This document shows positions 21,925 through 28,226 of a DNA stretch of 64,000 nucleotides, one piece after another. The DNA is taken from the sequence record PQ390715.1; one strand, written 5' to 3'. The notes beneath the pieces were generated by a model that saw only the letters and a list, made by a program, of their open reading frames with translations, was not told where the DNA came from and did not search any database. The translations under genes were made by a program, and so were the position numbers. Position 1 is the first letter of the stretch. The number at the start of each line of letters is the position of its first letter. Source of the DNA: Escherichia phage SHEFM2K.

Positions 21925-22234
21925 TAGGCTCCTGTTTAGATTCTTTCATTAGTACTATCATCTTATGTACTAATGGCATAGGAAACTCTAAATCCCATAC
22001 TAATGATTCCTGAAAGTATTCCTCTGGTGATAAAGTACTTAAATCTTTAATATCAACGTGCTTGTATATTTTATTTTCGTAATTAACAAATGATATATAT
22101 AAATCACTAACATAAGAATCATAGGTAATTGTGAATGGCTTACCCTTGTAATCCATTACATCTCTACATAGACTACTTTTGATATATGTATGTTCAAATG
22201 ATTTATATACCTTGAGTTGTATATTAGTTTTCAT
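21890..22234 (-). CDS. hypothetical protein, FamA
   Basis: PEEYFQESLV. Confidence 0.7.
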   Translation of the reverse strand: MKTNIQLKVYKSFEHTYIKSSLCRDVMDYKGKPFTITYDSYVSDLYISFVNYENKIYKHVDIKDLSTLSPEEYFQESLVWDLEFPMPLVHKMIVLMKESKQEPNGDYEEHTVEY

Positions 22235-22499
22235 ATTTCTCTTTATTAGCTTGTTTGGTTTTATAGTGAATTAAATCTATTAATGTAATCAAGTACAACG
22301 TCAAATAGTACTCTTGTTGATCTGTACCTAATGATACAAAGAACTTGTGCTCATAGATTAAAACCTGTTTCTCTTCAAATGGACATTTAATCCTCTGTAT
22401 AGGCTTAAGTAAATGATAGTACTTATTAAATCTATGATACATTTCTAGTTCTGTCAGTACTTTCATATTAAACACATACTCCATTAGCAGTAGCATCAC
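22224..22499 (-). CDS. hypothetical protein, FamB
   Basis: VSLGTDQQEYY. Confidence 0.6.
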   Translation of the reverse strand: MMLLLMEYVFNMKVLTELEMYHRFNKYYHLLKPIQRIKCPFEEKQVLIYEHKFFVSLGTDQQEYYLTLYLITLIDLIHYKTKQANKEKYEN

Positions 22500-22689
22500 G
22501 TAAAGCTGTCAAATACTTCTGTACGGCTTGCTCTTGCTTATTTGTACCTAAAAGTATATACATCCATAATTCACTGTAATGTACATCTTGTGTATAAGGG
22601 TCATTGTAACTTTTTGATAATATAGCATCAAATTCAGATGCATGAACCCTTGTGAACTTAAGAATATCTTGTTGTGTTATGATTCTCAT
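22468..22689 (-). CDS. hypothetical protein, FamB
   Basis: ILLGTNKQEQA. Confidence 0.7.
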   Translation of the reverse strand: MRIITQQDILKFTRVHASEFDAILSKSYNDPYTQDVHYSELWMYILLGTNKQEQAVQKYLTALRDATANGVCV

Positions 22690-22901
22690 ATCTTTTCCTG
22701 TACAATCTGTATAAGAATACCTATGTGTGAATTAACAGTTCTCTCTTGATGCTGTGTTCCTAAGAGTGTCAGTACTATCATATCTGAACGCAAAAGATTT
22801 TTTTCAAGTTCACTTATATCAGTTCTTGAATCAAGTGCCATATATTTGTGATTATTCTTCCTGAATAGTGCCAAGTACTCTTGGTTTGATATTATCTTCA
22901 T
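22686..22901 (-). CDS. hypothetical protein, FamB
   Basis: TLLGTQHQERT. Confidence 0.7.
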   Translation of the reverse strand: MKIISNQEYLALFRKNNHKYMALDSRTDISELEKNLLRSDMIVLTLLGTQHQERTVNSHIGILIQIVQEKI

Positions 22902-23113
22902 AGTTTACTTTTAATTTCCATTAAAAGTGCTCTAATATGCTCATTGACAAATCGCTCTTGGGAATCTGTGTCTAGGGTGAGAAGCATTCTTAAATCGGAA
23001 CCTCTGATGGTATATTCTAAATCATTCTTTGATTCTCGCATAAGTTTCTGAAAGGATGAGAAGTGTAATCCCATGAGTTCAATGTATTCTGCTGTTCCTA
23101 GTGGTTTTGGCAT
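22898..23113 (-). CDS. hypothetical protein, FamB
   Basis: LTLDTDSQERF. Confidence 0.7.
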   Translation of the reverse strand: MPKPLGTAEYIELMGLHFSSFQKLMRESKNDLEYTIRGSDLRMLLTLDTDSQERFVNEHIRALLMEIKSKL

Positions 23114-23331
23114 TTTAGTTCAATCGCTCGTTTAAGTGTATTAATATAATCTTTAATGTCGTGTTCTTGATAGTTCGTTCCAAGGGTAGCTAGAACATAG
23201 ACTTCATTTCTCTTAATAATTTTATCCATATCTGGTATATCTGATGTGTTAATGACGAAGAGCTTCAAAAACAGTCCATTTATGATTGTTAGGTATTCTA
23301 CATCGGTAATGATTTTCATTTGCATTTGCAT
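23098..23331 (-). CDS. hypothetical protein, FamB
   Basis: ATLGTNYQEHD. Confidence 0.7.
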   Translation of the reverse strand: MQMQMKIITDVEYLTIINGLFLKLFVINTSDIPDMDKIIKRNEVYVLATLGTNYQEHDIKDYINTLKRAIELKCQNH

Positions 23332-23537
23332 TTTCTCAGTACTGATTCTTTAAGTTCATTGATGTAGCACTCTACATATTCTTCTTGTAGGTTTGTTCCG
23401 ATATGTAACAGTACTCTTAAATCTGCTCTCAGTACTTCTTTATCATCTTCATCTATATCAGACAGTGTTATGTTTAAGAATTTACTTGAACTCTCTATAA
23501 GTAATATTACTGAATCACCTTTGCTTAAAATTTTCAT
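23316..23537 (-). CDS. hypothetical protein, FamB
   Basis: LHIGTNLQEEY. Confidence 0.7.
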   Translation of the reverse strand: MKILSKGDSVILLIESSSKFLNITLSDIDEDDKEVLRADLRVLLHIGTNLQEEYVECYINELKESVLRKCKCK

Positions 23538-23745
23538 AATCTCTTTTTGCTTTCCTCGCCAAAAGGTACATATACGATTCTTCGTATTGTGCTTGGTAGT
23601 TTGTGTTTAAGAGTCGAAACAACTTCTGTTCTGCTAGAACGAGTTGCTTATCTTCATAACAACGATAGCGTATCAACTTTTTGTATTCGATGTTGATTAC
23701 ATCCATTACTATAAGCCCATGTTCATCATCTGTCAAGTGTTTCAT
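23515..23745 (-). CDS. hypothetical protein, FamB
   Basis: RLLNTNYQAQY. Confidence 0.7.
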   Translation of the reverse strand: MKHLTDDEHGLIVMDVINIEYKKLIRYRCYEDKQLVLAEQKLFRLLNTNYQAQYEESYMYLLARKAKRDYENFKQR

Positions 23746-23984
23746 GCATTTTTTCTTTTTCTTATATGTTTAGTTAAAAGGTATATTAGTTTTCTATTGT
23801 ATTCTTCCTGATAGTTTGTTCCTAATAGTGCAAGAAGTTTTGCTTCAACTAAAGCTAATTGACGTTCTTCAAATGTGTGTTCCAGTATGTACTTTGGGTT
23901 TGATTTTTTAGCGTAATCACTATTAGTTTTCATTACAATCTTATGATATTCATTAACTGTTAGGATTTTTAAATACTTGATCAT
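23742..23984 (-). CDS. hypothetical protein, FamB
   Basis: ALLGTNYQEEY. Confidence 0.7.
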   Translation of the reverse strand: MIKYLKILTVNEYHKIVMKTNSDYAKKSNPKYILEHTFEERQLALVEAKLLALLGTNYQEEYNRKLIYLLTKHIRKRKNA

Positions 23985-26749: not shown

Positions 26750-26969
26750 CTAGTTTATCCTGTATAACATTCGTTAATTGTTCGATATATTCTGTGCAAA
26801 ACTTATCTTGATATTGAGTCCCCATAAAGTACAGCAACCATAGCTCATTAACTTTAGCTCGCATTTGGTTCCATGTAAGGCTGGGGTCACCGTAGACTAT
26901 CCTTGTGATGGGGGTTAGTTTACGAATTATAGTTTCAAATTCATCATCAGTTAAGTGTTTCATTTGCAT
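26655..26969 (-). CDS. hypothetical protein, FamB with about 30-aa C-terminal extension
   Basis: YFMGTQYQDKF; extension overlaps downstream gene. Confidence 0.55.
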   Translation of the reverse strand: MQMKHLTDDEFETIIRKLTPITRIVYGDPSLTWNQMRAKVNELWLLYFMGTQYQDKFCTEYIEQLTNVIQDKLDDYLLTKHEDFIRSGVSDCPLLSSKHPPHEQ

Positions 26970-27178
26970 TTGTCCCTTATTAAATCAGTGAGGGCAACTA
27001 TGTGTGCAACAACATACTCTTCCTGAAAGTTCGTCCCCAGTACAGCCATCATGCGTATATCGGTGGTGTTTATCCTGTGTTCCCTTACACATAAACCTTC
27101 TGTGTGAGGAAGTGTAAAATATTTGTTTATTGCAGCAACGATAATTTTATTCTTCTCGTAATTACTTAAATGTTTCAT
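26960..27178 (-). CDS. hypothetical protein, FamB
   Basis: AVLGTNFQEEY. Confidence 0.7.
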   Translation of the reverse strand: MKHLSNYEKNKIIVAAINKYFTLPHTEGLCVREHRINTTDIRMMAVLGTNFQEEYVVAHIVALTDLIRDKCK

Positions 27179-27387
27179 AGTTTGCTCTTAATGTAGTTCT
27201 GAAGTTCAATTAAGTATTTCCCTACATAATACTCCTGAAAGTCTGTATCCAAAAATGCACCCATAAGTAAATCCTTCTCCATTGCCCTTGATAAGTTAAG
27301 GTCTGCATTTGAAAGGTATATAAGTAATATTTCAGTCTGGACAGAATTGAAACGTTTCTTATATTCTTCTGGTGTTAATATAATCAT
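27175..27387 (-). CDS. hypothetical protein, FamB
   Basis: AFLDTDFQEYY. Confidence 0.7.
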   Translation of the reverse strand: MIILTPEEYKKRFNSVQTEILLIYLSNADLNLSRAMEKDLLMGAFLDTDFQEYYVGKYLIELQNYIKSKL

Positions 27388-27599
27388 AATTTGCTCCTGA
27401 TGTATTTCTCAAGAGATGACAAATACTTTTCCTCATAATACTCCTGATAGTCTGTTCCCAAGAATGCACCCAAAAGTATTTCATTTTCCAATACCTCGGC
27501 TAAGTTTAAATCAGACGTCTCTTCGTATATTATGAGGATTTCAAGTTGTCTGGCAGCGATGCGTTCAGTATATTGATATGAGTTTTCTATAATAATCAT
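27384..27599 (-). CDS. hypothetical protein, FamB
   Basis: AFLGTDYQEYY. Confidence 0.7.
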   Translation of the reverse strand: MIIIENSYQYTERIAARQLEILIIYEETSDLNLAEVLENEILLGAFLGTDYQEYYEEKYLSSLEKYIRSKL

Positions 27600-27805
27600 A
27601 TTTTACTCTTAATATCTTCTATTAAAAATCGAATCCATTCTTCAACATAATCTTCCTGATGGTTTGTGTTCAGTACAGCCAACATGCGGATCTCTGCTCT
27701 TGCAACTTCAATTTCAGTTTTAGGCAGGTCTTTGCTGATATCCACCATTAAGTCCATGTATTTCAAGATAAGACCGTATGATTGGGTTCGTGTTATAGTT
27801 TTCAT
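27596..27805 (-). CDS. hypothetical protein, FamB
   Basis: AVLNTNHQEDY. Confidence 0.7.
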   Translation of the reverse strand: MKTITRTQSYGLILKYMDLMVDISKDLPKTEIEVARAEIRMLAVLNTNHQEDYVEEWIRFLIEDIKSKI

Positions 27806-28002
27806 TGTTTCCTCGTGGACAATATTTTATTTTTCAATGTATCCATATATTGCCACACCCATCTACCCTGATAGTTTGTTCCCAATGTAATCAAAAGGTA
27901 TAACTCCATTCGTTCTACGTGTGTGTCTGTGTTGTAAATCTTTACGTAGTTTTTACGTAACAGTGATTGATATTCTTCTTTATTTAAAATACGCATTTTC
28001 AT
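27802..28002 (-). CDS. hypothetical protein, FamB
   Basis: ITLGTNYQGRW. Confidence 0.7.
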   Translation of the reverse strand: MKMRILNKEEYQSLLRKNYVKIYNTDTHVERMELYLLITLGTNYQGRWVWQYMDTLKNKILSTRKQ

Positions 28003-28196
28003 AGTTTACTCGTTATATCTTCAATTAAATACCAAATCCAATCGTTGACATACCTTTCCTGAAAGTTAGTTCCAATGAATAGTGCCATAATTAATTCACG
28101 CTTATAGGCAATACCACGGTCATGGGACTTATACATTATCATAGCCATGTTATTGATAAGTCTTTCGTGGTGCTGTTCTTTAGTTAAAATACGCAT
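27999..28196 (-). CDS. hypothetical protein, FamB (first gene of array)
   Basis: LFIGTNFQERY; start set at ATG 28196 (MRILTKEQ) preceded by AAGGGAG; track's upstream M lies inside the promoter. Confidence 0.7.
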   Translation of the reverse strand: MRILTKEQHHERLINNMAMIMYKSHDRGIAYKRELIMALFIGTNFQERYVNDWIWYLIEDITSKL

Positions 28197-28226
28197 AGGG
28201 ACTCCCTTAAAATTAATATCAATCAT

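Follow-up and report, generated by a model that had tools for sequence, protein, structure and literature searches.

A tandem array of 27 small paralogous genes near the inferred terminal repeat boundary of Escherichia phage SHEFM2K

Introduction

The host-takeover module in the terminal redundancy of phage SPO1 and the pre-early genes of phage T5 are early takeover genes located at or near long terminal repeats. In eukaryotic viruses, tandem paralogues near the genome termini, with presumed or demonstrated roles in host interaction, make up the MGF110, MGF360 and MGF505 families of African swine fever virus (ASFV) and the terminal families and ‘gene accordions’ of poxviruses. Here we describe FamB, a family of small proteins encoded mainly by one uninterrupted array of 27 genes in a 64,000-nucleotide (nt) stretch of DNA from Escherichia phage SHEFM2K (PQ390715.1), referred to below as the window. 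We establish the family's membership, coding status, fold, position, conserved promoter, ancient tandem origin, mosaic turnover and absence from the list of virion proteins of a relative. The array is the largest gene family of the window, accounts for ~2% of the genes of the genome and forms a fixed landmark after the terminal repeat. More than 80% of the genes of jumbo phages, which are candidate therapeutic agents, are uncharacterised.

The takeover modules of PA5oct, SPO1 and T5 mix unrelated genes that typically have their own promoters, as does the terminal repeat of the present phage, whereas the FamB unit is gap-free, lies just outside the repeat and consists of 27 copies from one family. 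Neither in sequence nor in fold was FamB found to be related to these modules. In PA5oct, a RaK2-like relative, transcription of the terminal-repeat genes is strong at 5 min and comes from one strand, and the host RNA polymerase is needed for infection (PMC7318152). The takeover modules share with the FamB region a leading end rich in small orphan genes, a long direct repeat, genes on one strand, host-type promoters and a non-structural character.

The ASFV and poxvirus families also resemble FamB: they lie at termini or terminal repeats, they vary among isolates in copies and alleles, and several other multigene families surround them. Their hosts, proteins and origin are unrelated to those of FamB, which shows no recent accordion-like amplification. 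The zinc-ribbon family of phage G, with ~35 copies, is likewise a large jumbo-phage expansion of a very small protein with a guessed function (PMC7824862). Unlike it, FamB has 0–3 non-conserved Cys residues, no zinc-binding residues and an all-helical fold, and it forms a strictly contiguous array at a defined genome landmark. Anti-CRISPR loci, anti-restriction genes of the Ocr/ArdA type and the islands of plasmid leading regions (PMC11541004) are small, fast-evolving, early and carried on the DNA that enters first; such anti-defence clusters share with FamB their clustering, mostly orphan folds and mosaicism between relatives (PMC11541004). FamB differs from them in showing no homology to known members in Pfam, PDB sequences or PDB folds, in having no associated helix-turn-helix (HTH) regulator, and in repeating one family rather than combining many unrelated inhibitors. 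Its charge is not uniformly acidic, unlike that of DNA mimics.

PHROG 4148, a full-length profile of 74 positions, represents the same family. It is a sequence cluster only, to which no function, fold, tandem array or terminal-repeat position is attached, and one array member (slot 26244) falls outside its profile. No account of the FamB family, its array, fold, landmark position or evolution was found in the literature searched. The array is in kind a lineage-specific expansion of small, putatively early accessory genes, already deposited and clustered as a PHROG; it is unusual in its size, its strict contiguity, its orphan fold and its fixed place at the terminal-repeat boundary.

Array membership

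All window open reading frames (ORFs) of at least 35 amino acids (aa), 419 in number, were searched with a FamB hidden Markov model (HMM) built from 21 seed copies. The model matches 26 contiguous minus-strand ORFs at 22224–28226 with E-values from 1e-13 to 1e-27, together with a weak match to the minus-strand ORF at 26244–26504 (E = 1.8e-3). Four dispersed copies, at 7486, 7655, 20469 and 20705, match with E = 4e-12 to 4e-6, as had been proposed by an earlier sequence-only reading of the window. No further match below E = 0.9 was obtained among these ORFs, and there were none on the plus strand. The members are:

22224–28196, minus strand: FamB array of 27 genes (HMM, alignment, refined starts and junctions, orthologous arrays in 8 phages)
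26244–26504, minus strand: divergent FamB member in a fixed slot, with TGTDKTAIARSIEQ in place of LGTNYQE (HMM, positional orthologs, AlphaFold2)
20469–20923, minus strand: dispersed pair, 20469–20735 and 20705–20923 (HMM E = 1.5e-7 and 6e-10; orthologs in relatives)
7486–7873, minus strand: dispersed pair, 7486–7677 and 7655–7873 (HMM E = 3.6e-12 and 4e-6)

These results support the assignment of the ORFs to one paralogous family in an operon-like array. The alignment consensus, MKxLTxxEY...LGTNxQExYVxxxIxxLxxxIxxK with near-invariant T49, Q52 and L63, reproduces the core LGTNYQE..V..I..L...I..K recognized earlier. The sequence-only reading had counted 26 array genes and placed ORF 22224 among the dispersed members. 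The contiguous, minus-strand, single-family array stands; ORF 22224 adjoins it as the last gene of the run, so the uninterrupted run comprises 27 genes by HMM and position. Slot 26244 has positional orthologs, 84–100% identical, in all phages compared, and the AlphaFold2 model of its product (predicted local distance difference test score, pLDDT, 82) contains three long helices in the helix order of the family.

Gene starts and junctions

The longest-ORF start of the first array gene, ATG 28226, directly adjoins the −10 hexamer of the upstream promoter. The true start is almost certainly ATG 28196, which follows a Shine–Dalgarno (SD) sequence and gives a product that fits the FamB N-terminus. 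A 198-nt first gene beginning at this ATG is annotated in 121Q, slurp01, phAPEC6, Ecwhy_1, vB_Ec-M-J and fEgEco12, and the same start is used in most deposited annotations.

28194–28211, minus strand: SD AAGGGAG and first-gene ATG (28196), product MRILTKEQ... (sequence, annotations of relatives)

With refined starts, the array proteins are 64–102 aa long (median 73). The 26 junctions between them consist of 13 ATGA overlaps, seven longer overlaps (≤74 nt), three abutting pairs and three gaps of 7–35 nt. The median intergenic distance is −10 nt and no gap reaches 40 nt. The overlapping arrangement described earlier is thus retained, with its sizes (66–104 aa) and its overlaps (4–30 nt) revised. 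An SD-like core precedes only 11 of the 27 array genes, and a terminator scan found no convincing terminator inside the array. The genes are spread over all three frames (11/8/8), which rules out a single long frame, an objection that the sequence-only reading had itself raised.

A dual-coding junction, AAATGCAAATGA, recurs in the array. Its letters end the upstream gene with ...K-C-K-stop and at the same time open the downstream one with M-Q-M-K or M-K, and the C-terminal ‘KCK’ of several FamB members is a consequence of it. The junction probably marks the ancestral edge of the duplication unit.

26960–26972, 25827–25838, 24195–24206 and 23316–23333, in the array: examples of the AAATGCAAATGA junction

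The array is followed without a gap by two genes that probably belong to the same transcription unit. The next promoter-bearing gap past the array contains TTGACA-17-TATAGT at 21518–21490.

21520–22234, minus strand: two genes (114 and 134 aa) of another, 11-member paralogue family, gap-free after the array (ORF coordinates)

Coding status and predicted fold

The FamB ORFs are real protein-coding genes. The pooled ratio of nonsynonymous to synonymous substitution rates (dN/dS) of the array orthologs is 0.28–0.39 in six phage comparisons, and ortholog differences are distributed over the three codon positions as 545/451/931, an excess at the third.

With an alignment of the 31 paralogues alone, AlphaFold2 produced a FamB model with a pLDDT of 97.7 and a predicted template modelling score (pTM) of 0.82. 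The model is a four-helix domain (residues 6–14, 17–25, 31–45 and 52–71) with a one-residue β-bridge from residue 2 to T49, for which no structural relative was found among PDB folds. The low-entropy columns of the family are the hydrophobic core, T5-x-x-E8 and G48-T49-N50-x-Q52-E53; from their place at helix starts in the model, the latter two conserved sets may be helix N-capping boxes. Other columns reach entropies of 3–3.8 bits, and the isoelectric point (pI) ranges from 4.3 to 9.9 across members. Replacements between orthologs concentrate in columns that are also variable across paralogues (rho = 0.62, p = 7e-9).

Distribution and database identity

Along its whole length, the array region shares 97.3% identity with Escherichia phages vB_EcoM_G17 and Sharanji. 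Matches to it occur in 35 jumbo-phage records (310–384 kb; 31 from Escherichia and four from Salmonella), among them 121Q, PBECO4, slurp01 and phAPEC6 (genus Asteriusvirus). All genes under the array match are annotated ‘hypothetical protein’. The PHROG 4148 profile was found by six of eight FamB members tested (E = 9e-22 to 9e-18, positions 1–70 of 74); 20705 matches it in its C-terminal part (E = 1e-8) and 26244 gave no match to it. Judged by these profile matches, FamB is PHROG 4148.

An exhaustive profile search of 1.84 billion representatives returned only 101 clusters, and tblastn recovered the same 35 phage records and no FamB-bearing plasmid. Megablast of the array against 5,426 complete E. 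coli genomes gave no match, and no IMG/VR relatives of two distant FamB members were found. FamB has no Pfam match above threshold, and the best match of its profile to PDB sequences has E = 1.4. The family also has a small number of metagenomic relatives. One of them, a contig of 9 kb (L009) for which no cultured relative was found, carries 14 contiguous and two dispersed FamB members that are only 29–48% identical to those of the window; its array lies behind a gap with TTGACA-16-TATTAT, equivalent to the promoter gap of the window.

Many family members (P0010, P0012, P0017, P0026 and others) are labelled ‘Escherichia coli’ by source and reside on contigs of ~345–378 kb. Because no complete E. 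coli genome has the array, Asteriusvirus genomes seem to occur as whole contigs in draft E. coli assemblies, where they seem to represent a carrier state or contamination. A fusion protein, P0183, was considered as a Rosetta-stone clue and rejected as uninformative: its C-terminal part is homologous to a RaK2/K64-1 protein and not to the window gene beside the dispersed copy, and it is annotated as two genes in GenBank.

Ancient tandem duplication and mosaic turnover

The closest paralogues in the array tend to be neighbours. The best paralogue partner is adjacent in 12 of 27 members, against 2.0 on average and never more than 10 in 5000 permutations, and adjacent pairs have a mean identity of 0.309 versus 0.251 ± 0.010 in random order. 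Both observations indicate an origin by tandem duplication, and the first confirms the earlier impression that neighbours are often closest relatives. The suggestion that duplication is ongoing did not hold, as no recent pair is present in any genome compared. The best paralogue pair is 55–57% identical in protein sequence in most genomes and 74% identical in 121Q, the longest nucleotide matches between array copies span 191–238 nt at 68–81% identity, and conservation across copies at the DNA level is confined to 24–29 nt encoding GTNYQ, in 12–13 copies. Neither near-identical copies nor long high-identity direct repeats, the signs of active amplification, were found within the genome. The duplication is tandem but ancient.

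Over seven genomes, the array is syntenic yet mosaic, with slots that are either ~100% or only 50–76% identical. Slots 25156 and 24420 and a second 23098-like gene are present in some phages and absent from others; at one place, four genes of Sharanji, slurp01 and PBECO4 correspond to two in the window. Copy number ranges from 25 to 32 among the array loci compared. Such variation has the appearance of loss together with the exchange of allelic cassettes, not of continuing amplification.

One gene has been extended by loss of its stop codon. In 26655–26969 (104 aa), a T>G substitution has added a 19-codon tail that overlaps the downstream gene, where the substitution is silent; the GGA codon is common to the window and phAPEC6. 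Stop-loss had been proposed for the extended members in general. It applies to this gene, but recent stop-loss is not supported for 26477 and 26244, whose lengths are conserved in all relatives.

26706–26708, minus strand: stop-loss codon, GGA versus TGA in vB_Ec-M-J and Ecwhy_1 (DNA alignment, three-frame translations)

Position, promoter and leader

Direct terminal repeats of ~20.7–21.5 kb have been described for Asteriusvirus from PhageTerm analysis of Sharanji and restriction mapping of fEgEco12 (PMC11895373, PMC13070987). The annotated repeat of vB_Ec-M-J occupies positions 1–21525 and its first FamB gene starts from 21,624; the repeat of fEgEco12 is 20,993 bp (PMC13070987) and its first FamB gene starts from 21,091. 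The repeat-to-array distance is thus 98–99 nt in both of these phages, whose termini are mapped. The end of the G17 array lies 20,661 nt away from that of the record. From these distances, the repeat in the window is placed from ~28,294 to ~48–49 kb, a stretch with raised G+C in which the GC skew flips at ~48 kb. The array would then be the first transcription unit of the unique DNA past the left repeat, reading away from the terminus.

28290–28298, no strand: estimated inner edge of the ~21-kb direct terminal repeat (~98 nt upstream of ATG 28196, from relatives)
28227–28254, minus strand: sigma70-type promoter TTGACT-N16-TAAAAT (only non-coding gap associated with the array; conservation)
28352–28417, minus strand: structured leader, a long hairpin A6-GTCAAGG...CCTTGAC-T6 enclosing an inner hairpin (RNA fold, conservation)
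23708–23736, minus strand: best internal promoter-like site, TTGACA-17-TATAGT (11/12; conserved in 8 phages)

The promoter is located in unique DNA, outside the repeat, at the place given for it by the sequence-only reading. Its −35 element is invariant in 8 phages and its −10 element alternates between TAAAAT and TATTAT, keeping the form TAnnnT. A sigma70-type promoter conserved across relatives, as would mark an early operon, is therefore present upstream of the array. It may not be the sole promoter, given the internal 11/12 site and possible read-through from the promoter-dense repeat. The −35 element of the internal site corresponds to the Leu-Thr codons of MKHLTDDE, and its conservation does not by itself mark it as a promoter, since the site lies in a gene that is itself 93–100% conserved.

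A leader of 190 nt ahead of the array promoter is near-invariant in 8 phages. The RNA fold of 28256–28450 has a free energy of −47.7 kcal/mol (z = −3.2), and 0 of 200 shuffled sequences were as stable. Judging from this predicted structure, the hairpin may act as a terminator of read-through, an insulator or a boundary signal at the inner end of the repeat; a simple terminator scan gave no call at 28352–28417. The segment 28256–28450 also holds three ATGCGT(A/T)A repeats.

Insertions are found at sites equivalent to 28227–28196. PBECO4 (L004) has an extra ~500 bp after the array promoter, with a 121-aa gene and its own TTGACA...TATGAT promoter, and in the metagenomic contigs L010 and L012 a gene of 272 aa separates the first FamB gene from the last one on the repeat side. 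The interval from the terminal repeat to the start of the array thus has the look of a hot spot for insertions.

Proposed function and its alternatives

We infer early timing, a single transcript and a binding or host-directed function for the array. The reading that we favour, and to which we give an even chance, is an early operon of diversified host-directed binders that contribute to host takeover, counter-defence or host range. In the packaged order, the left terminus would be followed by the ~21-kb direct terminal repeat, the structured leader, the sigma70-type promoter, the 27 FamB genes and two unrelated genes. Shortly after the DNA enters, host RNA polymerase would make a single polycistronic message from the array, and this message would be translated largely through coupling at the stop/start overlaps. 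On this reading, the FamB proteins are small and soluble, fold into four helices, are not part of the virion and belong to a multigene family specific to the lineage; they share a scaffold, predicted to consist of the hydrophobic core and two S/T-x-x-E/Q helix-capping boxes, on which surfaces and charges differ. Because the scaffold is shared and the surfaces and charges vary, each paralogue would probably have a different partner. Among the 62 virion proteins of phAPEC6, none is a product of its array genes gp467c–gp489c (PMC7247149 Table 1), in a list from which 8-kDa proteins are easily missed, though one protein of 4.7 kDa was detected. The only transcript timing that points to early FamB expression comes by analogy from PA5oct. 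phAPEC6 encodes its own sigma factor (PMC7247149).

If the products are diversified host binders, the array offers ~30 natural versions of a tiny, confidently predicted orphan scaffold with which host targets or inhibitors of defence might be discovered. It would also be a tractable model of phage multigene-family evolution, in which ancient duplication is followed by loss and allelic cassette exchange rather than amplification, and a candidate for what sets the host range of jumbo phages of E. coli and Salmonella. A more specific form of this proposal, possible but doubtful, makes FamB the phage counterpart of the terminal families of eukaryotic viruses: a library of ~30 variants on one putative early transcript, carried by the first unique DNA to enter. 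Each variant would neutralize a different polymorphic host factor, such as a defence or toxin allele. Phages infecting the same cell would exchange cassettes, reshuffling the library and determining host range.

Several observations weigh against the host-directed reading. The conservation pattern is the one pointer to binding partners. No similarity to a known anti-defence, regulatory or host-takeover protein was found, and the literature searched gave no account of Asteriusvirus transcription or expression. The array promoter matches the consensus at only 10/12 positions with a 16-nt spacer, weaker than the 12/12 promoters of the terminal repeat, and a promoter scan of 19–30 kb was not above chance (59 sites versus 55 expected). 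The dN/dS of the flanking non-FamB genes is 0.25–0.35, the same as that of the array, which therefore carries no specific signature of an arms race or of positive selection by this comparison. As for anti-defence homology, none was seen in Pfam, PDB sequences or PDB folds, and no dedicated anti-defence library was searched; PADLOC, which covers defence rather than anti-defence systems, gave scattered single-member matches with E ~1e-3 or weaker.

An unlikely alternative casts the FamB products as regulators or architectural proteins that bind nucleic acids: a family of transcription factors or nucleoid proteins that has expanded and acts on phage or host DNA or RNA. Small helical products of an early-looking operon would suit such a role, 16 of 31 members have a pI above 8, and putative small transcription factors have expanded in other jumbo phages, the ~35 zinc-ribbon copies of phage G being an example (PMC7824862). 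Judged by profile or fold matches to DNA-binding domains and by basic surface, FamB does not belong with HTH, ribbon-helix-helix (RHH) or other DNA-binding regulators.

It is also improbable that the array is largely dispensable baggage, an old expansion under weak selection or hitch-hiking in a gene-permissive terminal region. A relaxed dN/dS that equals that of neighbouring orphan genes, the gain, loss and replacement of whole genes between close relatives (25–32 copies), the read-through tail of 19 aa that one copy tolerates and the restriction of the family to one phage group are all compatible with it. The dN/dS is nevertheless clearly <1 in nearly every slot, the fold-determining residues are retained in 31 of 31 copies, and the ORFs of nearly all copies are intact in the eight phages compared. 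Moreover, L009 has kept an array with the gap-free layout and the promoter, in a lineage so divergent that no copy is >48% identical. If the array were dispensable, it would mark a 6-kb safe-harbour region for engineering.

Quite unlikely is a role as assembly factors or chaperones, for instance of the many distinct ‘hair’ and tail fibres, or as a hetero-oligomeric intracellular structure whose stoichiometry is fixed by coupling. Tight translational coupling suits stoichiometric co-production, chaperones would be expected to be absent from virions, as is observed, and the fibre sets of Asteriusvirus are unusually complex (PMC7247149). Yet the array is remote from the structural modules and differently oriented, at a promoter-dense genome end of early appearance, ATGA overlaps are generic in phage operons, and a copy number that differs among near-identical phages is hard to fit to a fixed multi-subunit assembly. 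Finally, that the ORFs are untranslated, either because the repeated DNA or RNA itself is functional or because a longer frame has been misannotated, is scarcely credible: no member appears in proteomic evidence and most genes lack an SD-like core (present at 11/27), but the third-position excess, the dN/dS of 0.3–0.4, the confident model from paralogue covariation (pLDDT 97.7), the use of three frames with stops conserved in the eight phages compared, and array copies that are <81% alike in DNA, too divergent for Tandem Repeats Finder, and contain no Rfam families, tRNAs or DNA-level tandem repeats all argue against it.

Gene content around the terminal repeat

The inferred repeat encodes ~54 small genes on the minus strand, with a mean product length of 88 aa and a median spacer of 82 nt. 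It contains ~35 near-consensus sigma70 promoters, many of them perfect: TTGACA-16/17-TATAAT occurs 13 times, and a variant, TTGCAA-16-TATAAT, recurs ~10 times. Intergenic DNA, 14% of the sequence, holds 39 of 58 promoter-like sites. This monocistronic, early-gene-like layout contrasts with that of the adjoining gap-free FamB array. Only four gap promoters were found in the 22 kb beyond the array, and none of 10 genes tested from the 22 kb downstream of it has a Pfam match.

Near the outer end of the repeat, at the estimated physical terminus, a segment of 1.3 kb (47064–48383) is devoid of minus-strand genes. The sign of the GC skew changes within it, and three promoter-like sites, one of them a perfect TTGACA-16-TATAAT, lie at 47.7–47.8 kb. 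Among the repeat genes, 35760–36116 (minus strand) encodes a GNAT acetyltransferase (Pfam, 37 bits, above cutoff), 32050–32691 (minus strand) a protein-kinase-like product with a sub-threshold match and, in the repeat of L010, 2044–2298 a product with a ParE_like match. From these matches, the three are possible host-modifying early enzymes.

At least seven paralogue families, of which FamB is the largest, surround the terminal repeat (1–22000 and 48384–63000). Comparison of FamB with five of these local families gave hhalign probabilities of only 0.1–1.9%, indicating no relationship. One family has 12 members, proteins of ~380 aa encoded on the plus strand at 53.3–63 kb; another has 11 members of ~115–135 aa and includes the two genes directly after the array; and a third has nine members of ~150–185 aa. 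Three tandem families of ~60–80 aa lie at 48.4–52.8 kb, with a relationship between two of them by hhalign (97%).

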